Below are positions 3,448 to 58,030 of a stretch of 64,000 nucleotides of DNA, one piece after another; positions within the stretch are counted from its first letter, which is position 1, and each line of letters opens with the position of its first letter. The notes beneath the pieces were generated by a model. That model had not been told where the DNA came from, ran no database searches, and was given only the letters and a program-made list of their open reading frames with translations. Both the position numbers and the translations under genes were made by a program. Source of the stretch: a virus; IMG/VR virus record IMGVR_UViG_3300045988_183796, one strand, 5' to 3'.

Positions 3448-4781
3448 GTAAAGAAGAGCAGAAGCCAAATATTTATCAAATCCCCAAAAACTCGTTTGAT
3501 ACCGGGTATGTGTTGAACGGACAATTCAAAACTCGAAACTTCGTTGAAGGTATCATCCTGGCACTACCGTTCTTGGGAATTTTCATTTATGGATGGCATG
3601 ATTTGGGATGGGATGTACAAAGTACCGTGGCCTATTGCGCAATACTCTGTGCTGCTGCTTTCCTTGGTGCAGCTCATGGTGTTGGCGGCGATAGCTTGTT
3701 TGAGTTTATTCAACGTGTTATCCGTTTCCGGCAAAGTCGCAGAATCTCAAAATACAATCCTCGTATCAAAACCGAACTTGAACCGGAATATCTGATTCAT
3801 GACGGGCGGATGCTCCCGAAAGACAAGCTCAAGCAAATGCTTGGCACTGTAAAGGGAAAAGTTCTTGGTGAAGAGAACGGTCCTATCAGTTCCGACATTA
3901 CAGATGAAGAGCTCAAGGTCTTCTACGATGATGACTATGGGTTCCTAGAAAAACCGGATGCCCTCAAATCTAAAGCAGAACTCCGTGCTGAAGCAAAACA
4001 GCGTGCGAAAGAAGAGAAGGAATACATTAACTCTTTGCCCCGTTCTGAACGCAAGGCTGCCAGAGAAGAAATCAAGCGTAAGCGTGAACAGGAAGAGGCT
4101 GAGAAGAAGGCAAAAGAAGCAGAGCGCGAACGCATTATTAACGAAGCTATTAAGAAGCGTCTGGATAAAGCCGAGCGTGTTAAGACCGCACAGTATTACG
4201 AGAAGTTCATGGACCCCGACAATGAGCAGGAAAATGACAAGCCGGAAGAGAATAACGCTGAACTGAATCCTCAGGCTGTAGAGTTCAAGCCCGTCACTAT
4301 AGGGCCGAGCAATAATGCGGTTCAGGATGATGTCGATATCTTTGACAGTGAAGAAAGCATCGACACCGATGAAGTAGAAGCGAATGTGGAAGCAGATGCG
4401 GATACAGAGCTGTTTGAGGACGGCACTGATACCGATATCCAAGTCCCGCAGATTGATGATGTAGTCTTTGACGATGAAGCGGAAGTACTTGACGTCGATG
4501 AGGACTTGGATGACTTATCGGTTGATATCCAGGATACTCAGTCTGCACAGCCCGCAAAGCAGGGCAGGGGACAAGTCGTGAACAGCGATGACGATGTCAG
4601 CTTGGATGATGTAGACCTTTTCGATGACAGCACGGTCAGCCGCACAGAGGAAAGACCTCAGAACGTCAAAACCTCTGGAAAGACGATGGGCTCGCAAAAG
4701 CAGCCGCAAACCACACAGAACAACAGCGATATTGATTATATGTCCTTGAATGACATTTCTATCTTTGATAGTGAGGAGTGA
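3444..4781 (+). CDS. PrgI/VirB3-like (TcpE-like) conjugal membrane protein with a long acidic/charged low-complexity C-terminal extension
   Basis: ATG 3444 after AAGGGGGAAGAAGC. Two N-terminal TM helices (ILALPFLGIFIYGW..., AYCAILCAAAFLGAAHG). It sits immediately upstream of VirB4, as in Tn916 orf17/orf16. The tail is rich in E/K/D repeats. Confidence 0.6.
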   Translation: MSKEEQKPNIYQIPKNSFDTGYVLNGQFKTRNFVEGIILALPFLGIFIYGWHDLGWDVQSTVAYCAILCAAAFLGAAHGVGGDSLFEFIQRVIRFRQSRRISKYNPRIKTELEPEYLIHDGRMLPKDKLKQMLGTVKGKVLGEENGPISSDITDEELKVFYDDDYGFLEKPDALKSKAELRAEAKQRAKEEKEYINSLPRSERKAAREEIKRKREQEEAEKKAKEAERERIINEAIKKRLDKAERVKTAQYYEKFMDPDNEQENDKPEENNAELNPQAVEFKPVTIGPSNNAVQDDVDIFDSEESIDTDEVEANVEADADTELFEDGTDTDIQVPQIDDVVFDDEAEVLDVDEDLDDLSVDIQDTQSAQPAKQGRGQVVNSDDDVSLDDVDLFDDSTVSRTEERPQNVKTSGKTMGSQKQPQTTQNNSDIDYMSLNDISIFDSEE

Positions 4782-4786
4782 AGCCT

Positions 4787-7447
4787 ATGTTTCGATTCAA
4801 AAATGGCGGAGAAATCCCCCACGGTGTTGTGGAACAGAGTATCGGTACAATCCCGCTGACGAAAAAGGAACGCGATGAAATCGCCAAAGAAGAGCGGCGG
4901 CGGATGAATCAAAAGCTGGAAGCTCAGAATGAGCGCTATCAAATCATTCGAAGCACACAGCGTATCATCCCTATTGAGGATATTTACGGCGGCATTGTTG
5001 TGACAAAGGACCACCGATATATCAAAATCATGGAATTTCGCCCTATCAACTTTGCCTATATGGACGCGGAAACTCAAAACCGTATTATTTCGCTTTTCTA
5101 TCAAACGTTCAAAGCAACTCCCTGCAATATCCAGTTCAAAACCTTTTCTCGTAAAGCTGATGTCGAGAATTCAATCGCGACCGTGACGGACTATTACAAA
5201 GCAGAAAAGAATCCGAGTCGTAAGCGAATGCTGCAGGCATACATCGGATTGCTTCGTAAGACGGCTTTGTCCGTTGGTATTACTCGTCGCTTCTTTGTGG
5301 TCGTAGAATTCCAGCGCACTATTAGTAACGATGGTTCTAAATTTGAAATGGTTGTGGCCGACTTGAATGCCGTTGCGGCAAACGTCCGCTCTCACATGGA
5401 ACAGTGTGGTAATATCTTTATTCCTGCACTTGGTAACCCTGACGGAAACGAGGACGCAGGTCTACACCAGCTTTTTTACCAGCTCTTGAACCGTAGAAAA
5501 AGCGAGACCATCACGTTCAAGCACCACATGGACCCCATTGTGGACCGTTATTTTGAAGCCGAAAAGAATGGCGTTAAGACGTCTTTGCAGGCAACGGAAC
5601 TGATTGCTCCAGACTGGATTGACTTTACGCATCACGATTACATTGTCATTGATGGCAAGTTTTATACTTTCGCTTACATTCCCTCGAACGGGTTCAGCCA
5701 GCGTGTCTATGCGGGCTGGGTGGCTACGTTCGTAAATGCTGGTGAAGGCATTGACGTCGATATGTTCTTTGAGCACATGTCCCGTGAAGCTGTCTTCAAT
5801 AAAATCAGTACACAGCTTCGTCTGAGCCGTGCAAACGCCATGGACAGTCACGATACTGACTCTGACTATCAGGCGCGTATGGAAAAAATTTCGTCCAGTG
5901 AATATATGCTGCGCGGCCTTTCCAGCGGCGAAGAGTTCTATTACCTGTCAATGCTCATCACTATCGTGGCAGATACAAAGAAGGAACTCGATTATAAGTT
6001 CGATGCTTTGAAAAAGCGTATCGAAGGTCAGAGCATGAAGATTCGCCGTGCGGATTTCATGATGGAAGAATGCTTCGATTCCTGCCTGCTTCCTCTTGCG
6101 AAAATCAATAAGGAGCTGGCAAAGAAATCTCATCGCAATCTTCTGACTTCGGGTGTTGCATCCTGCTATCCGTTCATCTCGTTTGAAATGCAGGACCCGG
6201 GCGGCGTTATGGTCGGTACAAACCATGTCAACAACTCTCTGGTCACCATCGATATGTTTGATACCCGTGCTCATGCAAACGCAAACGCCGTTATCCTGGG
6301 CTCTTCCGGCTACGGCAAGACTTTCACCGCACAACTGTTCGCACTACGCTTGTCTGAGATGGACACGCAAGTGTTTATCATCTCTCCTCTGAAAGGTTTG
6401 GAGGACTACGGCGGCGGTTGTAAGGCAGTCAATGGTCAGTTCGTCTCCATGGACCCCTCTTCGGACAACAACATCAACATCATGGACATTCGCGCTCCTG
6501 ACGATGAGGACGCAAAACTGCTGGATGATTATGAGGCTTCTGGCTCCTTCTTGACCAAAAAGATTCACACGATTCTTTCGTTCCTGCACCTGGTTGTTCG
6601 CAATATGACGCAGGAAGAAGAGCAGCTGATTGACGGCTGCCTGTATGCGACATACGCAAAGTTCGGCATTACCCGTGATAACAACTCTATCTACGATAAA
6701 GATGGCAACTATAAGGTGATGCCGCTGTTGGAAGATTTGCAGGAAGAAATGAGAAAAAAACCTGAACTGCATACCGTCTGCAACATCTTGAATCCGCTAA
6801 TTAACGGTTCTATGGCTTGCTTCAATCACCACACCAACGTGGACCTTGACTCCAAGTACATCGTATTTGACTTCAATGGCATGAAAGGCTCTTTGCTTAC
6901 CATGTCTATGTTCGTGGTTCTGGACTTTGTCTGGACGAAAATCAAAGAGGACCGTACACAGCGCAAAGCCGTATTTATTGACGAATGCTGGAAATTGATT
7001 GGTACTGACTCCAACGAGCAGGCAGCTGAAGACGTTGTTGAAATCTTCCGTACGATTCGTGCTTATGGCGGTTCCGCTTTTGCTATGACTCAGGATATTT
7101 CTCAGTTCTACGAATACAAGGGCGGCAAATACGGCAAGGCAATTATTGGTAACGCCGATACCAAAATCATCATGCACCTGATTCCGTCCGAAGCAAAAGC
7201 CCTTCAGGAAGCCATTCAGCTGACCAGCGTTGAGATGGAAGCGGTATCCAGCCTGCCGCGTGGTCAAGGTCTGGTTTGCTCTGCATCCGCAAAACTGTTC
7301 GTTGATTTTGTGGCCGATGACTATGAAGCCAAGGAAATCACAACCGATGCTAAGTCCTTCTACGAACGCCGCAAGGCTCTGGAAAAGAAAAAGCGGGAAG
7401 AAGAAGAGAAGGCGGCGGAAAATACCGTCATCGATGTTGAAATGTGA
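4787..7447 (+). CDS. VirB4/TrsE/TcpF-like T4SS ATPase
   Basis: Walker A ILGSSGYGKTF and Walker B VFIDECW. About 887 aa. RBS GAGGAG about 8 nt upstream of ATG 4787. Overlaps the stop of the upstream gene. Confidence 0.85.
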   Translation: MFRFKNGGEIPHGVVEQSIGTIPLTKKERDEIAKEERRRMNQKLEAQNERYQIIRSTQRIIPIEDIYGGIVVTKDHRYIKIMEFRPINFAYMDAETQNRIISLFYQTFKATPCNIQFKTFSRKADVENSIATVTDYYKAEKNPSRKRMLQAYIGLLRKTALSVGITRRFFVVVEFQRTISNDGSKFEMVVADLNAVAANVRSHMEQCGNIFIPALGNPDGNEDAGLHQLFYQLLNRRKSETITFKHHMDPIVDRYFEAEKNGVKTSLQATELIAPDWIDFTHHDYIVIDGKFYTFAYIPSNGFSQRVYAGWVATFVNAGEGIDVDMFFEHMSREAVFNKISTQLRLSRANAMDSHDTDSDYQARMEKISSSEYMLRGLSSGEEFYYLSMLITIVADTKKELDYKFDALKKRIEGQSMKIRRADFMMEECFDSCLLPLAKINKELAKKSHRNLLTSGVASCYPFISFEMQDPGGVMVGTNHVNNSLVTIDMFDTRAHANANAVILGSSGYGKTFTAQLFALRLSEMDTQVFIISPLKGLEDYGGGCKAVNGQFVSMDPSSDNNINIMDIRAPDDEDAKLLDDYEASGSFLTKKIHTILSFLHLVVRNMTQEEEQLIDGCLYATYAKFGITRDNNSIYDKDGNYKVMPLLEDLQEEMRKKPELHTVCNILNPLINGSMACFNHHTNVDLDSKYIVFDFNGMKGSLLTMSMFVVLDFVWTKIKEDRTQRKAVFIDECWKLIGTDSNEQAAEDVVEIFRTIRAYGGSAFAMTQDISQFYEYKGGKYGKAIIGNADTKIIMHLIPSEAKALQEAIQLTSVEMEAVSSLPRGQGLVCSASAKLFVDFVADDYEAKEITTDAKSFYERRKALEKKKREEEEKAAENTVIDVEM

Positions 7448-11914: not shown

Positions 11915-12043
11915 CCTGGTCGGAACCGTAGGTGCTTGAAACCGTAGGTACTTGCCTAAAGTTGAGCGAAATGTACTTGCGGGAAGCGTAGCCGCAATAG
12001 ACTACTCCGAAAGTACCGTAGGCCCGCATACCGTAGGTCATAC
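11915..12043. repeat. Cluster of CGTAG-core direct repeats (ACCGTAGGTRC x4 and GAAGCGTAGCCGC)
   Basis: aaccgtaggtgcttg, aaccgtaggtacttg, gtaccgtaggcccg, ataccgtaggtcat and gaagcgtagccgc are read directly from the sequence. Related clusters lie at 13890-13990 and 57960-58030. Confidence 0.6.
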
Positions 12044-12411
12044 AGTCAACAACCCCGCCCAAACCGGTTCACCGGTTATAGACGGGGCTTGCGGGGCAAC
12101 CCGTAAGCCCGGTTGATTAGCCTTGGTGAACGGCAACTTCGGTTGCTGCGAACTCCGTTATGCATTTGATGAGCAATCATCTTCATAATATAGGCACCCC
12201 GATATGCTCCACAAGTGTCGGGCTCTGCGGGCAGTGTATGTATCAATGGCGCAAGCCGTTGATATGTATTACGTTAAAAATCTCTAAGGGTAGGAGATGT
12301 GCGGCTGCCATGCCGAAAGGCTGAAACAGTGCATAACATTGGCGAAGTGGACCACAGGGCGCAAGCCCTGACTTATAGTTTCATTACTATTTAACGAAAG
12401 GAGTATCTTGC
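12044..12411 (+). ncRNA. IscB-associated omega-RNA (HEARO-like) scaffold, copy 1
   Basis: About 365 nt of stop-rich non-coding sequence ending exactly at the iscB ATG. Contains GNRA-capped stems (cagggc-gcaa-gccctg; gcttgcgggg-caa-cccgtaagc; accggttcaccggt). Its 5' and 3' blocks are shared with a second copy at 30880-31198, and the two copies show compensatory base changes. Confidence 0.6.
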
Positions 12412-13605
12412 ATGAGCACTTGCGTTTGTGTTCTCAGCAACAGTGGTGAACGCTTAATGCCTACCTTCCGTCTTGGCAAGGTACGCCGACTCTTGAAAGA
12501 CGGAAAAGCAAAAATCGTTAAGCACCATCCATTTACTATCCAGTTACTGTATGACAGTAAAACAAACACGCAGCCCATCGAAATCTGCGAGGATGTGGGC
12601 TACAACTACATCGGCATCAGTGTAAAAAGTCAATCTCACGAGTATGTATCTGCGCAGTATGATACATTACAGGATGAGAAAGCCTGCCACGACAGTTGTC
12701 GTAAGTTGCGCCGAACCCGCAGAAATAGACTGCGCTACCGTAAACCGCGCTTCGATAACCGCAAGCGCGGCGAAGGTTGGCTTGCTCCTTCTTTGAAGCA
12801 TAAGAAAGAACTCAATGTCAACGTTGTCAAGATGTATTGTGCAGTAATGCCCATTACTCATGCAACGGTTGAGGTTGGTTCTTTTGATACGATGCTTGTA
12901 AAAGCAATTCAGGAGGGAAAAGCCATTCCTGAGGGAGCAGACTACCAGAAAGGTCCCCGCTACAACTTGGCAACTTTGCGTGAGGCAGTGTTCTACCGTG
13001 ATAATTACACCTGCCAAGTTTGTGGACGCAAAATCGCGGATGGTGCCATTTTACATATGCACCACATGTTCTACTGGAAAGGAAGACACGGCTACCAGCT
13101 TGATGAGTTGGTTACAGCGTGTGAAAAATGCCACACGCCAGCAAATCATCAAAAAGGCGGCAAGCTCTTCGGTTTTGGCGAAGATAAAGAATTTGCCAAT
13201 CTTTCAGGTGCAGCGTTTATGAACGCTGTTTGCTGGCAGATAGTAGATGCACTGCACGCCACATACGGTAAGGAATTTGTGACCATCACTTATGGTGCGA
13301 TGACAAAGGAAAAGCGAATCATTCTTGGCATAGAGAAAACCCACAACAACGATGCGTATGCAATGGGAGATTATCATCCGGTACATCGTTGCGTGTTTAG
13401 GCATTACCAAAAACGACGCAGAAACAATCGTGTGCTGGAAAAATTCTACGATGCCACTTATATCGACACCCGCACCGGTAACAAAGCAAAAGGTAAAGAA
13501 CTATTTAACGGCAGAATTAGCCGTAATCACAAAAAGAATTCTGAAGACCTGCACAAGTACCGCAGCAAAAAGGTATCGAAGGGCCGTCGCTCTATAAGAA
13601 GGTAG
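12412..13605 (+). CDS. iscB: IscB (IS200/605 OMEGA RNA-guided HNH/RuvC nuclease)
   Basis: N-terminal PLMP-type motif (SGERLMPTFRLGKVRRLLKDGKAKIVKHHPFTIQL). RuvC-I EDVGYNYIGISV. Arg-rich bridge helix RKLRRTRRNRLRYRKPRFDNR. RuvC-II ATVEVGSFD. HNH YTCQVCGRK...HMHH...ACEKCH. RuvC-III THNNDAYAM. No TnpA nearby. Confidence 0.8.
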   Translation: MSTCVCVLSNSGERLMPTFRLGKVRRLLKDGKAKIVKHHPFTIQLLYDSKTNTQPIEICEDVGYNYIGISVKSQSHEYVSAQYDTLQDEKACHDSCRKLRRTRRNRLRYRKPRFDNRKRGEGWLAPSLKHKKELNVNVVKMYCAVMPITHATVEVGSFDTMLVKAIQEGKAIPEGADYQKGPRYNLATLREAVFYRDNYTCQVCGRKIADGAILHMHHMFYWKGRHGYQLDELVTACEKCHTPANHQKGGKLFGFGEDKEFANLSGAAFMNAVCWQIVDALHATYGKEFVTITYGAMTKEKRIILGIEKTHNNDAYAMGDYHPVHRCVFRHYQKRRRNNRVLEKFYDATYIDTRTGNKAKGKELFNGRISRNHKKNSEDLHKYRSKKVSKGRRSIRR

Positions 13606-13889
13606 CGCTATGCAATTCAGCCATACGACACTGTGCGTCTCGAAGGTAAAACATACATTACAAGCGGGTGCCATAATAAAGGCACAAGACTTTTGATTCC
13701 TGCTAATGGGAAAAACAAGTCCGTAGCAATTTCCAAAGTTCAAGTTGTTTGCCATGCGGGAGCATGGATACAAATCATCTAAATATTGAAAGGAGGTAAG
13801 CAGGAAATGCTGTATCTTAGTCTTTTCTAAGAAACGCATTCCTCCCCACCTAAGCCTTACGGCTATAGATGGGGTGTCCTGCTCCATTA

Positions 13890-13990
13890 TCATGAAGCGT
13901 AGCTGCTTGTAAAGAAATGAAAGACGGATGACGGAAGCGTAGCCGCTGCCCGGTAACAGGCTGCCGGTTGCGTAGCTGCCATTCGTCTTT
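13890..13990. repeat. Three GCGTAGC(T/C)GC repeats with about 34-nt spacing
   Basis: gaagcgtagctgc, gaagcgtagccgc and ttgcgtagctgcc are read directly from the sequence. They lie downstream of iscB and upstream of gene 14014. Confidence 0.55.
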
Positions 13991-21359: not shown

Positions 21360-22661
21360 GTGGCGAGTGAACGAATCATTCTTCATTGTGACATGAATTG
21401 CTTTTATGCAAGCGTGGAGATGGCCTATAACCCAAAGCTGCAGGGGAAGCCGATTGCAGTATGTGGTGACCCGGAAAGGCGAAACGGCATTGTGTTGACT
21501 GCCTCGTATCCGGCCAAACGGATGGGCGTGAAAACCGGGATGGCACTCTGGGAAGCGCAGCAGCATTGCCGTGACATCATCTTTGTTCCGGCTCATTATG
21601 ACCTTTATACTAGGTACAGTAAATACACCAGAGAAATCTTCTTGCGTTTCACAGACCAGGTCGAATCGTTTGGCTTAGATGAAGCATGGCTTGATTGTAC
21701 CGCAAGCCAGTCTCTTTTTGGCAGCGGGCAAAAGATAGCCAAGCAAATCTCCGACGCCGTGAAGGATGAACTCGGCATCACCTGTTCTATCGGCGTGAGC
21801 TGGAATAAAGTCTTTGCAAAGCTGGGGTCCGACTATAAGAAACCGGATGCCACCACCATCATATCAAGGTCAAACTGGAAAGATATCGTATTCCCGCTGC
21901 CTGCCACAGACCTTTTGTATGTTGGGTCCAGAACGGGAAAAAAGTTATCAAGCTACTGTATCCATACAATCGGTGATTTGGCGACTGCCAATCCAAACTT
22001 TCTGAAAGAAAAACTCGGGAAAATCGGCCCGATGCTTTGGGGATTCGCCAATGGCCTTGACACGGGAGCAGTGGCGAAATACGAGGGAAGGGAAGCTCAG
22101 GCACCTATCAAGAGCATCGGAAACAGCTGGACAACGCCACGGGACTTGAAGACTGACCGGGATGTCTGGATTGTTATTTATCTGCTCGCGGAAAGTGTCG
22201 CTGCGCGGCTCAGAGAGAATCATTTCCGTTGCCGAGGCGTGGAAGTGAGCCTCCGGGATTCCAGCCTTTTCAGTTTCGAGCGGCAAGTGAAGCTGTCTCA
22301 GCCAACGATGCAGGAAAAGGATATTGCGGAGGCAGCTTACCAGCTGTATAAGAAGAACTACCGGTGGAGTGAGCACCTACGCTCAGTTGGCGTGCGTGCC
22401 ATTGACCTGCGGCCAGATACGGAACCAAACCAGATATCTTTTGAGTACAGCGCCGAAAAGCAGGAAGAGACCGAGCGGCTTGAATCCGCGATTGACGGGA
22501 TACGGAACCGATTCGGGTATTACTCTGTGCAGCGAGCCGTCATGTACAAAGACCGGTTTCTCTCTCATTGTGATGCAAAGGGAGACCATACGATTCACCC
22601 ACATGGGTATTTACAGGGAAACACAGGGGAGCATCTAATCTATGTCAGAACCAAGAATTAA
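21360..22661 (+). CDS. Y-family DNA polymerase (DinB/UmuC-like)
   Basis: N-terminus ILHCDMNCFYASVE...GKPIAVCG and FGLDEAWLD catalytic motifs. GTG start after GGAGGAGGCCAATC. Confidence 0.85.
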   Translation: MASERIILHCDMNCFYASVEMAYNPKLQGKPIAVCGDPERRNGIVLTASYPAKRMGVKTGMALWEAQQHCRDIIFVPAHYDLYTRYSKYTREIFLRFTDQVESFGLDEAWLDCTASQSLFGSGQKIAKQISDAVKDELGITCSIGVSWNKVFAKLGSDYKKPDATTIISRSNWKDIVFPLPATDLLYVGSRTGKKLSSYCIHTIGDLATANPNFLKEKLGKIGPMLWGFANGLDTGAVAKYEGREAQAPIKSIGNSWTTPRDLKTDRDVWIVIYLLAESVAARLRENHFRCRGVEVSLRDSSLFSFERQVKLSQPTMQEKDIAEAAYQLYKKNYRWSEHLRSVGVRAIDLRPDTEPNQISFEYSAEKQEETERLESAIDGIRNRFGYYSVQRAVMYKDRFLSHCDAKGDHTIHPHGYLQGNTGEHLIYVRTKN

Positions 22662-29892: not shown

Positions 29893-30300
29893 TCAGATTC
29901 TCATTAGAAGTTCTGTCGGAGTAAATGCGACTACTTTGCTTCTTGTGAAATCACGAACGTTTCTCGTAATAATATAATCGGCATGAATTTGTTCTGCAGT
30001 AGCACTTTGAACTGCATCTTCAAAATCCTTCCAGTTCATTTCAACAGCTTTTGAAAGAATAGAAGAACTGAAATCAGCAAATTCAAAAATCAAACACAGT
30101 TTGTGATATACTTCTTCGATTTTATCGGAAGTGAGTTCTTTTCGGAGAATATACATAATATTTGCGAAGGATAGCGTGGAAATATAGCCTTTTGCTTGCT
30201 CTGTTTCGCATAGCTTCCATATCATCGCGGATTCCTTCACAAAGTTTTCTCGGTTTTGCAATACATCCAATACGATGTTAGCGTCAATCAGTAAGGTCAT
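29893..30300 (-). CDS. PIN-domain toxin (VapC-like)
   Basis: MTLLIDANIVLD..., with acidic residues in PIN positions. Overlaps the antitoxin gene by 17 nt. Confidence 0.8.
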   Translation of the reverse strand: MTLLIDANIVLDVLQNRENFVKESAMIWKLCETEQAKGYISTLSFANIMYILRKELTSDKIEEVYHKLCLIFEFADFSSSILSKAVEMNWKDFEDAVQSATAEQIHADYIITRNVRDFTRSKVVAFTPTELLMRI

Positions 30301-30535
30301 ACTTTTCTCTCAGCCTTTCCTCTTTCACTTCGTCAAGGTTGTAATTTCCTTTAAGGATGCCGGTGAGGGAATCTGTGAGATAGGAAACGGCAGCATCTTT
30401 GGGAATGAAACGACCAACTTCACGGCCGTTTTTTGTTACGATTATTTCCTGACCAGACATAACGAGATTCAAGTATCTTCCAAAATTATTCTGCATTTCA
30501 GTTGCGGTTGCAGTAGCAGTAATCATAACTGACAC
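30284..30535 (-). CDS. Phd/YefM-family antitoxin
   Basis: About 83 aa with the typical Phd fold sequence (QNNFGRYLNLVMSGQEIIVTKNGREV). Confidence 0.8.
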   Translation of the reverse strand: MSVMITATATATEMQNNFGRYLNLVMSGQEIIVTKNGREVGRFIPKDAAVSYLTDSLTGILKGNYNLDEVKEERLREKYDLTD

Positions 30536-30810: not shown

Positions 30811-30879
30811 TAAAGACAAAGCGATTGTGAGATGGGGCGATACCGATGCAGTAGGGATGAGAATCTTAGCAGCTAAAAG

Positions 30880-31198
30880 AGTCAACAACCCCGCCTAAAC
30901 CGGTTCGCCGGTTATAGACGGGGCTTGCGGGGCAACCTGTAAGCCCAGTTGATTAGCCTAAGCCCATTGCTCCGGCAGTGGGGAAAACTACGTTGTGTAC
31001 TAATAATATAGGCACCTTATCCATGCTCCACAAGTGGTGAGCTCTGCAGGCGTTTCGTTAAACATCTCCGAGGGGAGGAGAAGTGCGAGCGTCATGTCGA
31101 AAGGCTAAAACAGTGCATAACATTGGCGAAGTGGACCACAGGACGCAAGTCCTGACTTATAGTTTTATTACTATTTTACGAATGGAGAAACAAAAATT
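30880..31198 (+). ncRNA. Omega-RNA/HEARO-like scaffold copy 2 (no iscB), abutting the flotillin start codon
   Basis: Shares the 5' ~75-nt and 3' ~95-nt blocks with copy 1. The middle is divergent. Shows compensatory base changes (caggac-gcaa-gtcctg versus cagggc-gcaa-gccctg). Confidence 0.5.
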
Positions 31199-32842
31199 AT
31201 GGTATATGTGATTGGAATTGTAGCAGCCCTGATTATTCTCTTTGGATTTCTCTGCTACAAGAAAGCTCCGCCCACGGAGGCTATCGTTGTAACTGGCTTT
31301 GGCCTGTCTAAGCCTAAAGTGGTTTGCGGAAAGGGTACATTTGTTCTGCCCGTTCTTCAACGGGCTGACCGACTGAATATGCGCCTTTTGAAAATCGATG
31401 TCAAGACTCCTGAAACAGGTGTTAAGACGAAGAACGGCGTAAGTCTCTGGATTGACTCTGTTGTCACGATTCAAGTCTACAGCGAAAACTCTACCGTTCT
31501 GGATGAAGAAGTGAAGGCATCCGGTCTGAAAGACGCCAAGGCGTACATCATGTCCCGCCAGCAGGCAGCCATCTCGAACTTTCTCGGCATGAACGAGCAG
31601 GGCATCAATGAGAAAGTTAATGACGTTCTGCAGGGCAATTTGCGTGAGATTGTCTCTGACATGACCGTTGACCAAATTCTGACGAACCGCAAGCAGATGG
31701 CTGTGAGCGTTATCGAGAATGCTCGCCCCGACCTTGCTAAGATGGGACTTGAGGTCGTGACTTTTAATGTCCAGGACATCAGGGATGCAGTGGATGTTCA
31801 AGGCCACAATCACGGCGTTATCGAAGCTATCGGCATCGAACAGGAAGAGCTCGTAAAGAAACAGGCTGAAATTGCCCGTGCTCAGGCTGCCCGTGATGTA
31901 GCCTGCGCGAAGGCCGATGCTGAGATGGCTGCAAATGCCAAAGAAGTTGAAGCGCAGACTGCGATTGCAAAACGCAACAATGAATTGCAGCTCGCCAAGG
32001 CAAAGCTGAAAGCTGAAGCTGATAAAGCTGCGGCTGACGCAGATGCTGCCGGTCAGATTCAGATGAATCTCCGCGCCAAAGAAATCAAAGAAGCGGAAGC
32101 GGATGCTGAAATTGCCAAGCAGAAGAAAATGGTAGACCTTGCCGCACAGGAAGCCGAGGTCCAACAACGCAAACTGGATGCGGAAGTCCGCAAACAGGCA
32201 GATGCTGACCTGTACCGCCGCCAGAAAGAGGCAGAAGCCAAGAAATATGAGGCGGAACGTGCAGCTGAGGCACAGAAGTTCTCCAAGCAGCAGGAAGCAG
32301 AAGGCATCGAGCTTGTCGGTAAGGCAGAAGCTGAAGCGATTCGTCAGAAAGGCTTGGCTGAAGCGGAAGCTATGAAACAGAAAGCAGAGGCATATAAGCA
32401 GTATAACGATGCGGCTGTGGCTGAAATGCTCATCAAGGTTCTTCCGGACATTGCCAAGAGCGTGGCTCAGCCTTTGTCCAGCATTGATAAGGTTTCTATC
32501 ATTGGCGGTGATGCCTCCGGCGTATCCGGCGTTTCCGGGAACGTTCCTATCCTGATGGCTCAAACCATGCAGACGGTGAAAGAAGCGACCGGCATTGACA
32601 TGGGCGAAATTGTCCGTGCCAACAGCATCCAGGCAAAGACAGACCGCAACATCAACATTATGACTCAATGTGAACAGCCTGAGAATAACAAAGAGAAAGG
32701 AGGTGCCAAGGCAATGGAACGCGTAGAAGGCGGCTATCTGATTCATGAGAAGAGTCTCAACGGTGAGGAAGTCACTCATTTTCGACCGGATGTGACCGAA
32801 GAAGAGAAGGCTATCATGAAAGACAAAAAAGCCAAAGATTAA
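31199..32842 (+). CDS. Flotillin-like SPFH/Band-7 protein
   Basis: N-terminal TM helix, then an SPFH domain (VVTGFGLSKPKVVCGKGTFVLPVLQRADRLNMR...) and a long EA/K-rich coiled-coil. The antisense 581-aa ORF was rejected. Confidence 0.8.
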   Translation: MVYVIGIVAALIILFGFLCYKKAPPTEAIVVTGFGLSKPKVVCGKGTFVLPVLQRADRLNMRLLKIDVKTPETGVKTKNGVSLWIDSVVTIQVYSENSTVLDEEVKASGLKDAKAYIMSRQQAAISNFLGMNEQGINEKVNDVLQGNLREIVSDMTVDQILTNRKQMAVSVIENARPDLAKMGLEVVTFNVQDIRDAVDVQGHNHGVIEAIGIEQEELVKKQAEIARAQAARDVACAKADAEMAANAKEVEAQTAIAKRNNELQLAKAKLKAEADKAAADADAAGQIQMNLRAKEIKEAEADAEIAKQKKMVDLAAQEAEVQQRKLDAEVRKQADADLYRRQKEAEAKKYEAERAAEAQKFSKQQEAEGIELVGKAEAEAIRQKGLAEAEAMKQKAEAYKQYNDAAVAEMLIKVLPDIAKSVAQPLSSIDKVSIIGGDASGVSGVSGNVPILMAQTMQTVKEATGIDMGEIVRANSIQAKTDRNINIMTQCEQPENNKEKGGAKAMERVEGGYLIHEKSLNGEEVTHFRPDVTEEEKAIMKDKKAKD

Positions 32843-33851: not shown

Positions 33852-35546
33852 GTGACGAAGAAAAATATTTTCCCTGTAGTTGCAACCATCGCCGTGGTGG
33901 GTGTTGTTCTCGGCGTGTTTTCGACGACTGTGCTGCGCGACTCGAATGTCAGCATCAGCACGATGACTTCCGAGCAGGCGTATGCGGATTTAAGCGGAAA
34001 GATGAAACGTATCGGGGTGCAGGAAGTATCCGTCAATCCGCAACAGCTTGATGTATCGGAGTTTCTGGACGCAAAAGATGAGTTGCCGGATATCGACTCC
34101 TCCTACCCGTTTGTGGTGGAGGGAAACGGTGATGTCAACATTGAAATTTTCTCTTCCGGCGAGAAAGCAGCAGAATCCGGCTCCGATTCTTTCCTGACAA
34201 GCATGGCAAAGAAGTTCAACGCCCAGCACAACAAGACTTCCGGAGACAAGACTATGAGTGTCTCCCTGCGCTCCATTCCGTCCGGTACGGCGGCTGAGTA
34301 CATCTCGACGGGAAAGTATCAGCCCGAGTGCTATACCCCTTCAAATACGCTCTTTGGCGAGCTGGTGAAGAACGAGGGCGTAGAATTGACCGTTGAGGCT
34401 GACCGTCTGGTCGGCAATGTGGCGGGTATTCTCGTATCAAAGAAGACAGGGGATATGCTTCGCTCTGAATACGGTGAAGCGTCTGTTTCTTCCGTTCTGA
34501 ACGCAACCATCGATGGCAAACTCATGATGGGGTATTCCAACCCATATACCAGCGCAACTGGTCTTAACTTCCTGCTTGCTGCATTGGCAAGCAGCGGCAG
34601 CGATACGATTGTCGATACGGCTGCTGTTGAGAATTTCCAGAAATTTCAAGCGAACGTCCCTCTCGTATCCTTCACGACCCAGCAGATGGTCCAGTCGGCA
34701 GACAAGGGCATCGTGGACGGCGTTGTCATGGAGTATCAGTCTTATCAGAATGACCCGACCTTACAGCGCAACTACGAGTTCATCCCGTTCGGTGTGCGGC
34801 ATGATAACCCCCTGTATTCTATTGGAAGCATCTCGGCCGAAAAGAAGGAAGTTATTGCTGCGTTCGTTTCCCTCTGCGCCCAGAATCAGGCAGAAGCGAC
34901 GAAGGACGGGTTCAATGGTCTTGACGACTATGCTTATACAGGCAAGGCATACGACGGCAACACCATCGCACAGGCTCAGAGTGTCTGGAAAGAAGAGAAG
35001 GATTCCGGTATTCCTATTGTGGCAGAGTTCGTTGTCGATACTTCCGGCTCGATGCGCGGCGAACCCCTGAATGCCCTGAAAACCGCGATGATAAACACCA
35101 TCCAGTATATCAATGACGACAACTATATCGGCATCATTGGCTTTGATTCAGATGTCAGGGAATACCTGCCCATTGACCAGTTCTCTCTGACCCAGAAAAC
35201 TCTGTATAAGGGTGCCGTGAACTCCCTCGATGCGAACGGCAGCACCGCAATGTACAACGGTCTTTGCGTTGCTATGGACCGCATCTACCAGAAATCTCAG
35301 GAACTGGGTGGGAATTGCACGCCCATCATCTTTGTGCTCACGGACGGTGACAACAATACCGGATATGGCTTCTCCGATACGAAGAACATCATTGCCGGTA
35401 TGGATATCCCCATTTACACCATCAGCTACAACTACGCAGCGGATAGTCTTTCGGAGCTCGCTTCCATCAACGAAGCGGCAGCTATCGTTGGTAACAGCGA
35501 GGATATCACCTACAAGCTCCGCAACCTGTTTAACGCAGAGATGTAA
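33852..35546 (+). CDS. von Willebrand factor A domain protein with an N-terminal TM anchor
   Basis: C-terminal vWA/MIDAS motif VVDTSGSMRGEP ... TDGDNNTG. N-terminal TM helix. Starts 2 nt after the upstream stop. Confidence 0.7.
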   Translation: MTKKNIFPVVATIAVVGVVLGVFSTTVLRDSNVSISTMTSEQAYADLSGKMKRIGVQEVSVNPQQLDVSEFLDAKDELPDIDSSYPFVVEGNGDVNIEIFSSGEKAAESGSDSFLTSMAKKFNAQHNKTSGDKTMSVSLRSIPSGTAAEYISTGKYQPECYTPSNTLFGELVKNEGVELTVEADRLVGNVAGILVSKKTGDMLRSEYGEASVSSVLNATIDGKLMMGYSNPYTSATGLNFLLAALASSGSDTIVDTAAVENFQKFQANVPLVSFTTQQMVQSADKGIVDGVVMEYQSYQNDPTLQRNYEFIPFGVRHDNPLYSIGSISAEKKEVIAAFVSLCAQNQAEATKDGFNGLDDYAYTGKAYDGNTIAQAQSVWKEEKDSGIPIVAEFVVDTSGSMRGEPLNALKTAMINTIQYINDDNYIGIIGFDSDVREYLPIDQFSLTQKTLYKGAVNSLDANGSTAMYNGLCVAMDRIYQKSQELGGNCTPIIFVLTDGDNNTGYGFSDTKNIIAGMDIPIYTISYNYAADSLSELASINEAAAIVGNSEDITYKLRNLFNAEM

Positions 35547-35665
35547 CTCAAAAGCGCGGTTTTGTCCGCGCAGCTGCTCCAAAAGACAGCCTCCACGCGG
35601 CGAGCAGCGGGCAACGGGAGACAGTCCCGGCAAATTGTCTTTGAGACGGAAGGAAGAAGTGCCCT

Positions 35666-37537: not shown

Positions 37538-39571
37538 ATGGTAAGAAGAAAAGCAAACGACTTGGAAAATCAGATGTCGCTGATGGACATGATGGCATCG
37601 AAAAGCCCCGAATATACCGAAGAAGGCCCGGAAGAACTCTTGGACCCCGGCGAGGACATGGAGGACAGTGAAGGGCAGACGGATAAGCCCTTCAAACTCG
37701 TGGCGAACAAGACCACGAAGGCAAAGGCGAGCATCTCCACGCAGGCGTTGAGTGTTGTGAAGGCGGTATATGCTGATACGGTAGAAACGAATTGGGAAGA
37801 GTTGTTTGACGGGTTCGACAGACTCTATGCTATCACTTTTTCGTCCGGTATCGAGTTCGTGAATAAGGTCATCAACAAGTTCTCGTATGCGGAAGTCGTG
37901 TTCGGATGCGAGAAAATCATCGCCAACGACATTGCTGCCATCATGTCGGTGCAAATCGACAGCGTGCAGCGGCTCGCTAAGTCTAAGTCGGCAGGGAACC
38001 TTGCGAACCGCCTCGATGACGGGTCCTTGCAGCTGTATGTATCGCGAGACACGAAATCGCACGAGAAAATCTTTATCTTGGAGAGCGCTGACCATAAGCG
38101 TGTCCGAGTCATCACCGGCAGTGCGAATATGTCGGCATCGGCGTTTTGCGGCATTCAGCGAGAGAATATCGTCTGCTTCGATGACGAGGCGGCATTTTCG
38201 CATTACAAGGTTCTGTTCGAGACCTTCAAGGAGACCTGCTCCGACAATGTCTCCTATAAGGCAGTCGTGAACACCATGAACCAGGAAGATTATCTGAAAG
38301 AGAACATCAAAGAAGTGCCCGTCTTTCAGTCTATTGAAAAGCAGAAGCTTGTCTTTCTGGAACAGGCACAGCCTGAGGATGAGGTCGAATACGAGATAGC
38401 TGCCGATGTCAAGAAAATGCAGGAACTCGTCAAGCCAATCATGCCTAAGATGCCGGTACAGGCGAATCGTATTGTAGTGGCAGCGGAACCGATGCGCGTT
38501 TTCGGGAAACGATATACCGAGGTGCGGCGTGTGGCAGCTGAGGCAGTTAAGCAGCTCCCAAAATTACATATCGACTATGATGCCGGGACCATGACCTTCA
38601 ACGACGAAAATATCGACCTCAATCCGAATCTCAGCGAGGTGGCAAAGAACATCAAGAGCATCCAGAAGTTCTTCTCAGGCATGGACTACTTTTACGGCGA
38701 TGTCGAACAGGCCAAGAAGGACTACTTCAAGTACATGACCTGGTATCTGGCTACTCCGTTCATGGCGTATCTGCGGTATTTCGCATCGAGGAACAACTAC
38801 GATACGAAGCTGTTCCCGATGTACGGCGTTATATACGGCGACTCAAACGGCGGCAAGACGACCTTTATAAAATTTCTTGTCAAACTCATGTGCGGTGAGA
38901 CCGTTAAGATGAACACGACGGAGGATTTCACAGCCACAAGAATCGACGGCCTCAAACGAGTTTGTGAGGGACTGCCGCTGAACATCGACGACCTCGCCAA
39001 GACCCAGTTTCAGAACCATTCAGAACGGGTAATCAAGAACGATGAATGGGGTATCTCGGACAGGCTCGTGAACTATCCTGCTGTATCTATCACATCGAAT
39101 AAAATTACCTCGCTGACAAAAGACCTCTCGAAACGTGCTATCATCTGTCGAATTGGTGCTAAAATCGACAACGAGCGCGGTGCCAAGAACTCAAAGCGTG
39201 TGAATGAGAGTATGTCGGAGCTGACAACCGCGTTCTATGGCGAATATGTCCGCCGAATGCTTGTTTGCATCGATGAGATGACGACGGAAATGCGTGAAAA
39301 TGCGAATGGCAAGGAATACTTCCCGGATATCTTCCACGCTTCGTCTAGTGTCATTGCAGATATCTTCGAGGCATGCGGAATCGATTTGCCGGACTATGTG
39401 CGTATCCTGTACTATAACGACTATATGGGTGATGAGAGCATTGGTCGTGCTGCAATTGAGAAAATCGAACTGGCATGGCATGGCAGGCTGACCCGAGCAA
39501 GTTCCGGGTTGATAAGAAGCAGAACAGGCTCATTTACTCCTATCCGCCGGATGGACCGTGGTACGAACTGA
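37538..39571 (+). CDS. Fusion protein: N-terminal PLD-like (HxK...GSxN) domain plus C-terminal SF3/D5-type P-loop NTPase
   Basis: HEKIFILESADHKRVRVITGSANMS resembles the PLD HKD motif. Walker A YGDSNGGKTTF, with a downstream SITSN motif-C-like element. RBS GGAAGGATAGG. Confidence 0.65.
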   Translation: MVRRKANDLENQMSLMDMMASKSPEYTEEGPEELLDPGEDMEDSEGQTDKPFKLVANKTTKAKASISTQALSVVKAVYADTVETNWEELFDGFDRLYAITFSSGIEFVNKVINKFSYAEVVFGCEKIIANDIAAIMSVQIDSVQRLAKSKSAGNLANRLDDGSLQLYVSRDTKSHEKIFILESADHKRVRVITGSANMSASAFCGIQRENIVCFDDEAAFSHYKVLFETFKETCSDNVSYKAVVNTMNQEDYLKENIKEVPVFQSIEKQKLVFLEQAQPEDEVEYEIAADVKKMQELVKPIMPKMPVQANRIVVAAEPMRVFGKRYTEVRRVAAEAVKQLPKLHIDYDAGTMTFNDENIDLNPNLSEVAKNIKSIQKFFSGMDYFYGDVEQAKKDYFKYMTWYLATPFMAYLRYFASRNNYDTKLFPMYGVIYGDSNGGKTTFIKFLVKLMCGETVKMNTTEDFTATRIDGLKRVCEGLPLNIDDLAKTQFQNHSERVIKNDEWGISDRLVNYPAVSITSNKITSLTKDLSKRAIICRIGAKIDNERGAKNSKRVNESMSELTTAFYGEYVRRMLVCIDEMTTEMRENANGKEYFPDIFHASSSVIADIFEACGIDLPDYVRILYYNDYMGDESIGRAAIEKIELAWHGRLTRASSGLIRSRTGSFTPIRRMDRGTN

Positions 39572-44473: not shown

Positions 44474-46669
44474 ATGATTACAACAAAGAAGATTGACCCA
44501 CGGCCATATCAGCAGAAAGCTGCTGCGGCGATTCATAGAGAGTGGGATGCCGGGAATAAGAAAACGCTGGTTGTGATGCCGACCGGAACCGGCAAAACTA
44601 TTGTGTTTGCAAGCATCGTGAACGACCAGGTGGAAAAGGGCGAACACGTTTTGATTCTTGCGCACCGGGAAGAGCTTTTACAGCAGGCAAGCGACAAGCT
44701 CAAGATGGTGACGGGGCTAGAGACCGCATTGGAGAAAGCTCAGAACTCGGCACTTGATTCCGATAAAATGGTCGTTGTCGCCAGTGTTCAGACTCTCTCT
44801 AAGCAGAATCGGTTAATGAAGTATCCGCGTGATTATTTCGGGGCTATCATCATTGATGAAGCGCATCACACGGCAGCCAAAACTTACAAGGGAATTCTCG
44901 AGCATTTCATTGATGCCAAAGTGTTGGGCGTGACTGCAACACCCGACCGAAGCGACATGAAATCCCTATCTGATATCTTTGATAGTCTTGCATTTGAATA
45001 TAAGCTCCCGGATGCAATTCGGGAAGGATATCTCTGCAAAATTAACACGAAGACAATTCCGGTCGAGGTAGACATCAGCAAGGTTCATATCAATGCCGGT
45101 GATTTCAGTGCTCAGGACCTCGGCAATGTTCTTGACCTGTATCTGGACACGATTGCGGATGCCATTGTGCGAGAATGCCTGAACCGAAAGACTGTCATCT
45201 TTACGCCTCTGGTACGAATCAGCAAAAGACTGTGCAATATCCTCAATAAGCGAAACTTCAAGACCGCAGAAGTCAATGGCGCGTCTGCGGACCGGGAGGA
45301 CGTTCTGAAAGGGTTTGACAATGGCGAGTACAAGGCGCTGACGAACGCGATGCTCCTGACGGAAGGCTGGGATTGCCCGACCGTTGACTGTATCATCTGC
45401 TTGCGTCCTACCAAGAGCCGTAGCCTGTATGCGCAGATTGTGGGACGCGGAACACGCCTATGTGAAGGGAAAAAGAATCTTCTCGTGCTGGATTTCCTGT
45501 GGCTGACAAAGAAACATAGTCTTTGCCATCCTGCTGATATTTTCTGTGAAGACCCGGAAGTGGCACAAAAGACCACCGATATGCTGGCGGATGCGGCACT
45601 CACCGGTTCGAATAGCCAGGAAAATTTCGGGAGTCCCGAATTGGGGCTGATTGAGGCAATCGAGGAAGCACAGACTGAGCTGGACGAGGAAAAGCGGAAA
45701 GCACTGTGTGAACTCGAAAAGCAGGATACGATTCAGCGCAAGCTCAAGGCACAGCGTCAAAAGCCGAGAGGATTGGTTGACCCGCTGCAGTACATTTTCA
45801 GCATCGAAGCGCCGGAACTCAACGATTATCAGCCGATGTTTGAGAGTGAGAGGCAGGAGCCTTCCGATGACATCATCGATAGTATTTCGTGCTACGGCGT
45901 AAAAGGGGATGCCATCAAATCTCAGGGCCTTGCCGCTGCAATTCTCAAACGACTCATTGCTCGCAGAGCCAGCGGAATGGCTACCCCGAAACAAATTCGG
46001 TGTCTTGAAAGTTTTGGGTTCGTCCATGTTGGGCGCTGGACATTGCGGTATGCAAGCGGCTTTTTGGACATCATCAGTTCTCATGACTGGAAACTTCCGA
46101 ATGGGTTCGACGCATCCACGCTGGACCCGGAAAAGAATACGGCAGAAGACCTCGCCAAGCTGTATCCAGACTACAAGGAAGATGAGACGAAGAAAGCACC
46201 GCGTGGGGATGCTTTCATCTGCTGCTACTACGATGCAAGCTACAATTTGGCTCGCAAGAAGGTCTGCAACAGTGAAAAAGAAATGTTGAATCTGTATTAT
46301 TCACTGTTCAATACTTGCGAAGCAAAGTACTTCTATTATACGAAGGAAGCTGATGCCTGGATGGCAGAAAAGCAGAATCTAATTGCCAGAAAGACTGGAA
46401 CACCGATTCCTGCCGCACAGCCGACTCAGGCAACACCCGCAGTACCTCCTCCCTTTGTCCCGACAGCTCCCGCTAAGAGCCACGAATATTATTGCTGCCT
46501 TGCCCGATGGGATGGGTCCTACATTGGCTATGAAACTTACAAGAGTGAGCAGGCAGCTCAGAATGCCCGAAAGCAGATTGCCCGGCGCGGTGAGACGGCA
46601 GTGTATGCCACAGTAGAGGAAGCCGAAGCGTGGGTCGAACAACAGAAGGCGGCAAGAACCAGGAGGTAA
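44474..46669 (+). CDS. SF2 DEAD/DEAH-box helicase (type III restriction-res-like helicase core) with a C-terminal extension
   Basis: Walker A VVMPTGTGKT. DEAH box IIIDEAHH. Helicase C motifs LTEGWDCP, QIVGRGTR. Confidence 0.8.
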   Translation: MITTKKIDPRPYQQKAAAAIHREWDAGNKKTLVVMPTGTGKTIVFASIVNDQVEKGEHVLILAHREELLQQASDKLKMVTGLETALEKAQNSALDSDKMVVVASVQTLSKQNRLMKYPRDYFGAIIIDEAHHTAAKTYKGILEHFIDAKVLGVTATPDRSDMKSLSDIFDSLAFEYKLPDAIREGYLCKINTKTIPVEVDISKVHINAGDFSAQDLGNVLDLYLDTIADAIVRECLNRKTVIFTPLVRISKRLCNILNKRNFKTAEVNGASADREDVLKGFDNGEYKALTNAMLLTEGWDCPTVDCIICLRPTKSRSLYAQIVGRGTRLCEGKKNLLVLDFLWLTKKHSLCHPADIFCEDPEVAQKTTDMLADAALTGSNSQENFGSPELGLIEAIEEAQTELDEEKRKALCELEKQDTIQRKLKAQRQKPRGLVDPLQYIFSIEAPELNDYQPMFESERQEPSDDIIDSISCYGVKGDAIKSQGLAAAILKRLIARRASGMATPKQIRCLESFGFVHVGRWTLRYASGFLDIISSHDWKLPNGFDASTLDPEKNTAEDLAKLYPDYKEDETKKAPRGDAFICCYYDASYNLARKKVCNSEKEMLNLYYSLFNTCEAKYFYYTKEADAWMAEKQNLIARKTGTPIPAAQPTQATPAVPPPFVPTAPAKSHEYYCCLARWDGSYIGYETYKSEQAAQNARKQIARRGETAVYATVEEAEAWVEQQKAARTRR

Positions 46670-50537: not shown

Positions 50538-51632
50538 ATGGCAAAGAATGAGAATCTGCACAAGGCAAAGGATGCCAAGAACGACGAGTTCTATACGCTG
50601 TTGAGCAGTATATCCGAAGAACTCAGACACTACAAGCAGCATTTCGCTGCAAAAATTGTATTCTGCAACTGCGATGACCCGACATGGTCTGCTTTCTGGC
50701 GGTATTTCCACCTGAACTTTGCAGAACTTGGCTTAAAGAAGCTGATTTCCACGCACTATGACCGTACAGAACCCACCTACAAGATGGAGTATGAGGGCGG
50801 AGACGACAATGATGTGGAGGTCGGTGTGAAGACCCCGCTGGAAGGCAATGGTGATTTCCGCAGTCAAGAATGCCTTAATTTGCTGGATGAGTGCGATATC
50901 GTGGTAACCAACCCGCCCTTCAGCCTTTTTAGAGAATTCGTCGGGACGTTGATGGAACACGATAAGAAGTTCATTATTTGGGGCAACAACAATGCCATTA
51001 CATACAAAGAGTTCTTTCCACTTTTGAAAGAAAACAAGGTGTGGCTTGGTTATACAGCGAATAAGACGTGTACATTTAGAGTTGCCGAAGGCTATCGCTT
51101 CGACGAAAAACTTACTGCACAATTCAATGACGGGCACAAGTATGGGAAAGTGCCCGCCATTTCTATTTTTACCAACCTCGACATCCAGAAGCGCCACGAA
51201 AAGCTGATTCTTTGGCAGAGATACTATGACGATAACGGGAATCCGTTGCCGGATGCGGAGGAGAGATACCCCCACTACGATAATTACGATGCCATCAATG
51301 TAGACAGGGTTGCTGATATTCCGGTGGATTATCGAGACGTAATGGGTGTGCCGATTACGTTCTTGGATAAGTATAATCCGAAAGAATTTGAAATTTTAGG
51401 CTACACGGGCGGTTTGGGGTGGAATAACCAAAACAATATAAAAACCACCAAAGAGTATTTGGAATGCAAACAGCACAACCCAGACGGGAGTATTACAAGT
51501 GGGGGCAAGGTAAATACTGGCGCGGCATTGTGCTTTAGTGAAATTCCTGCACAAAGATACTATTCGGCATCAAATTGCGACGGATATCTACTCAGAACAT
51601 ACGGACGAATTCTTATTTGCAAGACGAAATGA
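50538..51632 (+). CDS. N6-adenine DNA methyltransferase (orphan; NPPF motif IV)
   Basis: VVTNPPFSLF catalytic motif. N-terminal DEFYT element, as in EcoRI-methylase-like phage/plasmid methyltransferases. Confidence 0.75.
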   Translation: MAKNENLHKAKDAKNDEFYTLLSSISEELRHYKQHFAAKIVFCNCDDPTWSAFWRYFHLNFAELGLKKLISTHYDRTEPTYKMEYEGGDDNDVEVGVKTPLEGNGDFRSQECLNLLDECDIVVTNPPFSLFREFVGTLMEHDKKFIIWGNNNAITYKEFFPLLKENKVWLGYTANKTCTFRVAEGYRFDEKLTAQFNDGHKYGKVPAISIFTNLDIQKRHEKLILWQRYYDDNGNPLPDAEERYPHYDNYDAINVDRVADIPVDYRDVMGVPITFLDKYNPKEFEILGYTGGLGWNNQNNIKTTKEYLECKQHNPDGSITSGGKVNTGAALCFSEIPAQRYYSASNCDGYLLRTYGRILICKTK

Positions 51633-57959: not shown

Positions 57960-58030
57960 CTTTTTGCTCATTTGCGTAGCTGCGCTTCTTTGTTGTTGGA
58001 ACCGTAGGTGCCAGGATGCGTAGCTGCCAG
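57960..58030. repeat. CGTAG-core repeat cluster (GCGTAGCTGC x2 and ACCGTAGGTGCC)
   Basis: ttgcgtagctgcg, aaccgtaggtgcc and atgcgtagctgcc. Same motif family as the clusters flanking the IscB locus. Confidence 0.55.

Follow-up and report, generated by a model that had tools for sequence, protein, structure and literature searches.

The DNA analysed here, a window of 64,000 nucleotides, is part of a 242,713-bp contig from a human-gut metagenome. At positions 12412..13605 it holds an open reading frame that resembles an IscB nuclease, preceded directly by a non-coding stretch with the look of a structured RNA. The locus raises the question of whether the two make up a complete RNA-guided nuclease unit and, if so, by what kind of element that unit is carried. 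An earlier note, made from the letters of the sequence, had described a complete IscB nuclease and its omega-RNA, forming a non-autonomous unit without the transposase TnpA inside a conjugative element. Most of this description holds upon closer analysis. The completeness of the nuclease does not.

A recent nonsense mutation in iscB

The 397-aa product of the ORF (12412..13605, plus strand) contains the PLMP, RuvC-I, bridge-helix, RuvC-II, HNH and RuvC-III segments. The PLMP segment and the arginine-rich bridge helix are recognisable in the translation as the motifs ERLMPT and RRTRRNRLRYR. Two Pfam profiles match the protein: RRXRR (PF14239; E 2.6e-45, residues 5-181) and HNH (PF01844; E 4e-7, residues 201-243), the latter lying between RuvC-II and RuvC-III. 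The best match among solved structures is 11hr_A (E 4e-34), labelled only "IscB", and OgeuIscB is matched through entries 7XHT (6.5e-33) and 7UTN (1e-32). The RuvC domain is split, and the predicted catalytic residues D61 of RuvC-I, E154 of RuvC-II, H218 of HNH and H311/D314 of RuvC-III are all present and invariant among the relatives; E154 and H218 align to E193 and H247, respectively, of OgeuIscB, whose catalytic residues are named in PMC9640706. A search of the protein database yielded 5380 relatives at E <= 1e-10. When Foldseek was run with the AlphaFold model of an intact homologue, the best 10 matches were all IscB or IsrB proteins (E 8e-19 to 4e-9). Confidence in this model is low (overall pLDDT 56, pTM 0.30), and its use was therefore limited to local secondary structure and to the ranking of fold matches. 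The Pfam, solved-structure, catalytic-residue and Foldseek evidence identifies the protein as an IscB, as the earlier note had proposed, rather than as a member of another HNH family.

The nuclease is not complete, however, and the full domain series previously attributed to it lacks its last member. An amber codon (TAG, codon 398; 13603..13605, plus strand) removes the C-terminal 59 amino acids. The orphaned 3' part of the gene (13606..13785, plus strand), consisting of 59 codons and a TAA at 13783-13785, continues in frame with 12412 and is predicted to encode the TAM-interacting beta-barrel. The nearest full-length relatives are 456 aa long, 89-95% identical to the window protein and alignable across the stop. 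At the position of the TAG, four of the closest five (P0001, P0002, P0004, P0006 and P0007) have Gln and the remaining one Arg, and only two residues encoded by the 59 downstream codons are unlike those of the closest relative. A copy with the 456-aa ORF is found on contig L006. It differs from the window at 2 of 1778 comparable bases, namely 13503 (A/T) and 13603 (T/C), the second being the single C-to-T change that turns CAG (Gln in the intact allele) into TAG.

The missing portion corresponds to a distinct structural unit. The AlphaFold prediction for the intact homologue contains six beta-strands within residues 407-455 (block pLDDT 77-83). The TI domain of OgeuIscB is a C-terminal five-stranded beta-barrel, in which E460, G461, R462, Y469 and W479 touch the TAM duplex and in which the changes G461P and Y469A abolish cleavage (PMC9640706). 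A C-terminal barrel of this type is absent from the window copy and present in the L006 allele. By sequence, the last 126 residues matched no solved structure, and in the profile search the C-terminus aligned to OrufIscB only and not to OgeuIscB. Loss of the 59-aa TAM-reading barrel makes it probable that the copy is inactive; the window nuclease is most likely dead, its TAM recognition gone, a conclusion that leans on OgeuIscB, which is ~20-24% identical in the Foldseek alignment. The window iscB would thus be a very recent pseudogene, flanked by an RNA gene and by element ends that are both intact.

The unit could still be active if the amber codon were read through, by means of a suppressor tRNA, recoding or leaky termination, or if the truncated protein were functional in its own right, in RNA binding or in some TAM-independent manner. 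In favour of continued activity, no catalytic residue has been lost, the RNA gene is intact, the 59 downstream codons are still open with their two differences from the closest relative, and the allele occurs on five contigs. Yet in a copy that differs by 2 bases from an intact one, recency by itself would account for the downstream frame still being open, and single substitutions in the TI domain of OgeuIscB suffice to abolish cleavage (PMC9640706). Recoding of the stop codon was considered and rejected: the window contains no tRNA genes, TAG behaves as an ordinary stop that terminates 17 of the 88 long ORFs, and reading it as sense brings no outsized gain in ORF length. Continued activity therefore appears improbable. 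We consider it very improbable that the transposon is really intact and that the T at 13603 arose as an error in sequencing or assembly. One base separates the window from the intact allele at the stop, and coverage of the source contig is low (cov 6.98), but the exact 397-aa product is found on five contigs from at least two accessions, among them a Logan assembly of SRR5279269 made independently, which argues against an assembly error.

Boundaries and ends of the insertion

The limits of the element were determined by comparing empty and occupied loci, collected by way of the adjoining 222-aa protein, which recurs across many contigs that represent this conjugative element. Contigs L003 and L005 carry this conjugative element without the insertion. 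The site reads ...TACCGTAGGTCATACA/ATGAAGCG... (the slash marks the joint) or, taken over other spans, ...GTCATACA/ATGAAGCG... and ...CATACCGTAGGTCATACA/ATGAAGCGTAGCTG.... In the window the site is occupied and reads ...GTCATACA/GTCAAC...CATTATC/ATGAAGCG..., with the junction ...GTCATACA/GTCAACAACCCC... at the omega-RNA side and ...CTCCATTATC/ATGAAGCG... at the iscB-distal side. The identical site is occupied by the same insertion in L006, which comes from another sample. Comparison of the empty and occupied alleles thus defines an insertion at 12045..13891 (1847 bp, plus strand), with unambiguous junctions and no target duplication. As in the IS200/IS605 family, the insertion is discrete and has neither target-site duplication nor terminal inverted repeats.

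Under the naming used for IS200/IS605 elements, the minus strand of the window is the element's top strand; position 12045 is the IS right end and position 13891 the left end. Both ends contain a subterminal imperfect palindrome. The one at the omega-RNA end (12053..12087, plus strand; CCCCGCC...TATAGACGGGG) lies 8 nt inside the tip and belongs to the base-paired part of the RNA consensus fold; the one at the iscB-distal end (13844..13874, plus strand; CCCCACC...TATAGATGGGG) lies 17 nt from the tip. The two palindromes are alike in sequence and on the same strand, another feature of IS200/IS605 elements. Folded as single-stranded DNA, the segment 13786-13900 gives a z-score of -4.4, none of 200 shuffled sequences folding equally well. 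The 1847 bp contain the RNA gene and iscB and no other gene. Internally deleted derivatives of 672 bp (L031 and L032) retain both ends and lack the nuclease.

No Y1 transposase (PF01797) was detected in the element or among the 52 window ORFs scanned, in agreement with the reported lack of TnpA, and none is annotated beside the relatives in 14 other loci. TnpA is found near only ~1.5% of iscB genes (bioRxiv 10.1101/2023.03.14.532601). With ~98.5% of iscB genes in the TnpA-less state, this state is the usual one and does not exclude membership in the IS200/IS605 family. The segment 12045-13891 is a non-autonomous insertion sequence of this family, made up of an omega-RNA gene and iscB only. The earlier description of a non-autonomous OMEGA unit on a mobile element is accordingly borne out, with a boundary that differs by 1 nt. 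The absence of TnpA and the orientation shared with the flanking operon could also suggest a fixed, domesticated HNH-nuclease gene, no longer mobile, whose structured 5' leader regulates it or the downstream genes, but this reading is contradicted outright by the empty sites. It is barely credible given the presence/absence polymorphism with exact boundaries, the retention of both ends in the 672-bp derivatives and the recurrence of the same ends beside ATGAA in every case, across at least 10 unrelated flanks.

Two genes of the window support the placement of the insertion inside a conjugative element, likewise proposed before. One, at 40-1611, encodes a VirD4/TraG-type coupling protein and the other, at 4778-7447, a TraG/AAA_10-type P-loop ATPase (the second also has a weak TraC-like match). 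IscB and TnpB units are numerous in this family of conjugative elements, in which a given site circulates in both occupied and empty form. The element had no match in annotated plasmid and phage collections. In a collection with one genome per species, IscB relatives were found at two loci, both on one contig of an uncultured Lachnospiraceae MAG; with just these two loci, on a single contig, the host stays uncertain.

The RNA gene

The cognate omega-RNA lies directly upstream of iscB on the same strand, as is typical of IscB loci. A HEARO-like scaffold extends over 12045..12400 (plus strand). In a local search, the Rfam model RF02033 matched 12045-12357 over its full length (model positions 1-211) with 59.2 bits and an E value of 1.9e-11. 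The comparison with the HEARO covariance model, suggested at the outset, thus gave a match over the whole model but a score under the gathering score of 83 bits. The shortfall is explained by two inserted GCAA-capped hairpins (insertions of ~17 nt and ~35 nt). As Meers et al. point out (bioRxiv 10.1101/2023.03.14.532601), RF02033 is without the 3' elements of the real omega-RNA; for hits just upstream of iscB, they took scores down to 15 bits.

The scaffold keeps the 5' GUCAAC stem, the nexus region and the 3' AACAUUGGCGA core of HEARO. The GNRA-capped stems that had been noticed upstream of the gene can be placed at 12168-12181, 12242-12263 and 12355-12370; all three are GCAA-capped, the first two are extra with respect to the consensus, and the third is the terminal hairpin, which is followed by a U-rich tract. 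An RNAalifold comparison of 10 distinct related scaffolds yielded 84 consensus pairs, 13 of them compensatory, with long-range closing helices included; since the 10 scaffolds are closely related, the support from covariation is moderate. On the strength of its predicted fold and of the full-model match, 12045-12400 is a structured HEARO-related RNA, consistent with the identification of this region as an omega-RNA scaffold in the earlier note. A scan of the plus strand ahead of the scaffold found no sigma-70-like promoter.

Guide and target motif

The first base of the insertion is also that of the scaffold. Hence, the preceding 16 nt, TACCGTAGGTCATACA (12029..12044, plus strand), which belong to the host flank directly 5' of the insertion and of HEARO position 1, would be the natural guide. 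In the omega-RNA transcript they would make up the 5' end and would serve there as the guide. The length of 16 nt is taken from the literature (PMC9640706), and we infer both this length and the ends of the RNA for the present locus. A guide had been proposed at this very location; the location stands, while the string given for it is shifted by 1-3 nt, the scaffold starting at 12045 and not at 12044. Among copies of the element, the 5' flanks vary and the scaffold is conserved.

At the opposite side, the host DNA adjoining the IS left end begins with ATGAA (13892..13896, plus strand; TTCAT on the minus strand), the candidate target motif and TAM. To survey distal ends, the last 19 nt of the element were scanned across metagenome contigs. 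ATGAA directly follows the distal end in 10 of 10 distinct non-tandem flanks (11 with the window's own site), and the sixth base after the end is variable. One more copy of the distal end adjoins another element in tandem. A soil contig, L038, in which the 19-nt end pattern was matched by chance, was left out. A fixed motif of 4-5 nt at the left end, here ATGAA/TTCAT, is a further property shared with IS200/IS605 elements. The TAM of wild-type GstIscB is TTCAT, lying on the 5' side of the IS left end (bioRxiv 10.1101/2023.03.14.532601), and the ATGA of the window is compatible with the NNRR TAM of OgeuIscB (PMC9640706). The natural empty alleles contain the guide match together with ATGAA, which occurs once in these sites (L003 and L005). 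Allowing up to three mismatches, the window contains no other match to this guide or to that of the solo scaffold described below (CTTAGCAGCTAAAAGA).

The guide includes the sequence CCGTAGG, which had been thought to recur in repeat clusters elsewhere in the window. The core is indeed within the guide, but "elsewhere" amounts to one copy: four of the five copies of CCGTAGG lie in the 120 bp immediately upstream of the element and the sole other one at 58002-58008. Likewise, the repeat ACCGTAGG has four copies at 11925-12037 and one at 58001. A second motif, GCGTAGCYGC, is found at 11986, 13897, 13937, 13970, 57974 and 58018. Both motifs are present in empty sites and are therefore part of the intergenic region of the host element rather than of the transposon. 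The occurrence of CCGTAGG in the guide is thus explained by the transposon having happened to land in, and split, a repeat-rich intergenic region.

A solo scaffold

A second omega-RNA sequence was found at 30865..31189 (plus strand). It consists of a 16-nt flank, CTTAGCAGCTAAAAGA, and of a scaffold at 30881-31189 that matches HEARO at 30881-31141 with 91.2 bits, the sole match above the gathering score in a scan of the whole window. The two scaffolds align from GTCAAC (at 12045 and 30881, respectively) to the ribosome-binding site, are 71% identical over 12045-12403 and have unrelated 5' flanks. Neither a second distal end nor a second IscB that might go with the scaffold at 30881 is present in the window. 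Four related loci lack this scaffold and read ...GCTAAAAAACTGAATGTGGAGAAAT... at the corresponding place. The solo scaffold ends in ...TTTTACGAA and is followed without a gap by TGGAGAAAC, which is the ribosome-binding site belonging to a flotillin-like gene (31199-32842), and one of the 672-bp internally deleted elements, L032, has the same left flank as the solo scaffold. The solo scaffold is likely to have arisen by a deletion between the GGAGs of the iscB and flotillin ribosome-binding sites. Such a deletion would have taken out iscB and the distal end, and a scaffold deprived of its distal end would no longer be able to transpose. What looked like the core of a third scaffold, at about 44.7 kb on the minus strand, falls within a helicase ORF, has no HEARO context and was dismissed as a chance match.

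Discussion

The locus is very probably an IS200/IS605-type insertion encoding IscB and its omega-RNA, whose nuclease was recently truncated by a CAG-to-TAG change and whose RNA gene and ends are intact. The boundaries, the lack of a duplication, the end hairpins, the invariant ATGAA, the conservation of the RNA structure, the homology to IscB and the nonsense change were all observed in this study. Transcription, use of the guide, cleavage, the supply of TnpA in trans and the loss of activity are what we infer from Meers et al. and from the structural papers.

These elements can be assembled into a model. The transposon would have inserted into single-stranded DNA beside TTCAT (ATGAA on the plus strand), at a place rich in repeats between genes of a large conjugative element of uncultured human-gut bacteria. 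Its movement would require a Y1 TnpA protein provided from elsewhere and acting in trans. Transcription would enter the element by read-through from the co-oriented upstream genes and would generate an RNA that starts with 16 nt of host sequence, TACCGTAGGTCATACA, and continues for its remaining ~350 nt as the scaffold to which IscB would bind. An intact IscB-RNA complex would then recognise and cut the element-free allele, in which the guide match is followed by ATGAA, and recombination with an occupied copy would restore the element. Restoration by cutting and subsequent recombination has been shown for the Geobacillus IscB (Meers et al., bioRxiv 10.1101/2023.03.14.532601). In the window copy, the nuclease step has most likely been lost. 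One could go further and suppose that, when two competing copies of the conjugative element meet in a cell, the IscB and TnpB units serve as homing drives between them, guided by RNA, and that solo scaffolds such as 30881-31189 lend additional guides in trans to some IscB from another part of the 243-kb contig. We regard this extension as improbable.

In practical terms, the window copy is to be annotated as a pseudogene rather than as a complete nuclease. Metagenome data alone suffice to read off the guide, the TAM, both ends, the target in its empty state and a sister allele that is intact, and the locus independently reproduces the published model of IscB elements; its significance beyond annotation is small. 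The intact 456-aa allele (L006, P0001-like), together with a scaffold of ~355 nt and an ATGAA TAM, would make a compact, gut-derived candidate editor.

All features of the locus agree with those of published IscB insertion sequences, of which it is a textbook case. The closest parallel is the ISGst element of Geobacillus stearothermophilus (bioRxiv 10.1101/2023.03.14.532601), which likewise has TTCAT beside its left end, lacks TnpA and is co-oriented with the upstream gene; the omega-RNA was placed at the transposon right end in that study, and it has the same position in the window. The element described here differs from ISGst in its setting, a conjugative element of an uncultured gut host as opposed to a Geobacillus chromosome, in its nonsense codon, and in being known from sequence. 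Its scaffold, at ~355 nt, has two extra hairpins and compares with an average of 242 nt in the same work (bioRxiv 10.1101/2023.03.14.532601). With OgeuIscB (7XHT, 7UTN, 8CSZ), the protein shares the order of the PLMP, RuvC, bridge-helix and HNH segments as well as a gut origin, and ATGA fits the NNRR consensus. OgeuIscB is the best match by fold (8CSZ) and among the best by sequence (7XHT, E 6.5e-33). The two proteins are nevertheless only ~20-24% identical (Foldseek), the C-terminal domain cannot be aligned by sequence, and the window protein is without that domain. The relation to HEARO RF02033 is one of alignment over the full model, with the scaffold at 12045 scoring under the gathering score and that at 30881 above it. 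Finally, the solo scaffold and the 672-bp elements L031 and L032 resemble the nuclease-less IS200/IS605 derivatives known as miniature or solo-end relics in keeping the omega-RNA, with or without ends; the solo scaffold of the window has lost the distal end as well.

OMEGA units across the element family

The family of large elements to which these contigs belong (contigs of 220-280 kb) seems to accumulate OMEGA units. On related contigs (L043-L046, L015, L017-L020 and L022), up to three genes of the RRXRR (IscB-like) type are found within 9 kb, and TnpB (OrfB_IS605) insertions adjoin the flotillin gene. TnpA is present in none of these contigs.

Internally deleted versions of the insertion sequence found at window positions 12045-13891 occur in related loci L031 and L032, as 672-bp elements, and in L036. 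Besides the omega-RNA and the two ends of the element, these derivatives retain the first 17 codons of iscB and roughly its final 50, and they still adjoin the ATGAA target motif; they are miniature elements without a nuclease. A separate arrangement is seen near position 4367 of contig L042. Here one element's distal end meets the start of another scaffold (GTCAATAACCC...) in place of ATGAA, and the junction resembles one left by a nested or tandem insertion. At one insertion site, the same IscB protein (P0020) is accompanied by either a long (~380-nt) or a short (~325-nt) type of scaffold (L047-L055 versus L051), and the scaffold in L032 is a mosaic of both window scaffolds. The association of either scaffold type with the same protein and site, together with this mosaic, suggests that copies recombine with each other.

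A solo omega-RNA scaffold

The second window scaffold, a HEARO/omega-RNA scoring 91.2 bits (above the Rfam cut-off), lies on the plus strand at 30865-31189, an interval that includes its 16-nt flank, CTTAGCAGCTAAAAGA. It has neither an iscB gene nor a distal transposon end. The gene that follows (31199-32842) is flotillin-like, and the scaffold is fused to its ribosome-binding site. Four related loci were found to have no solo scaffold at this location. Directly upstream, on the minus strand (29893-30535), is a gene pair for a PIN-domain toxin and a Phd/YefM-type antitoxin, replaced by ~250 bp of differing sequence in the related loci L013, L014 and L017.

Other features of the host element

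Two intergenic regions of the element contain clusters of short direct repeats (plus strand; 11925-12037, 13894-13980 and 57973-58027), with two motifs, ACCGTAGG(T) and GCGTAGC(C/T)GC. Both motifs also occur in alleles with an empty site, and downstream of the L032 mini-element. They may serve the conjugative host element as operator or iteron-like sites. The window further contains a Y-family polymerase gene (21360-22661) and a run of restriction- and defence-like genes encoding an NgoFVII/PLD-type nuclease (37538-39571), a ResIII helicase (44474-46669), an EcoRI-type adenine methyltransferase (50538-51632) and a GmrSD-HNH nuclease (52453-53589). Finally, a von Willebrand-A domain gene (33852-35546) is followed, 27 nt downstream, by an HDV-like ribozyme (35573-35642, plus strand). 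The ribozyme, also found in L017 (9375-9444), scores 60.4 bits with the Rfam HDV-F-prausnitzii model, whose gathering score is 44.
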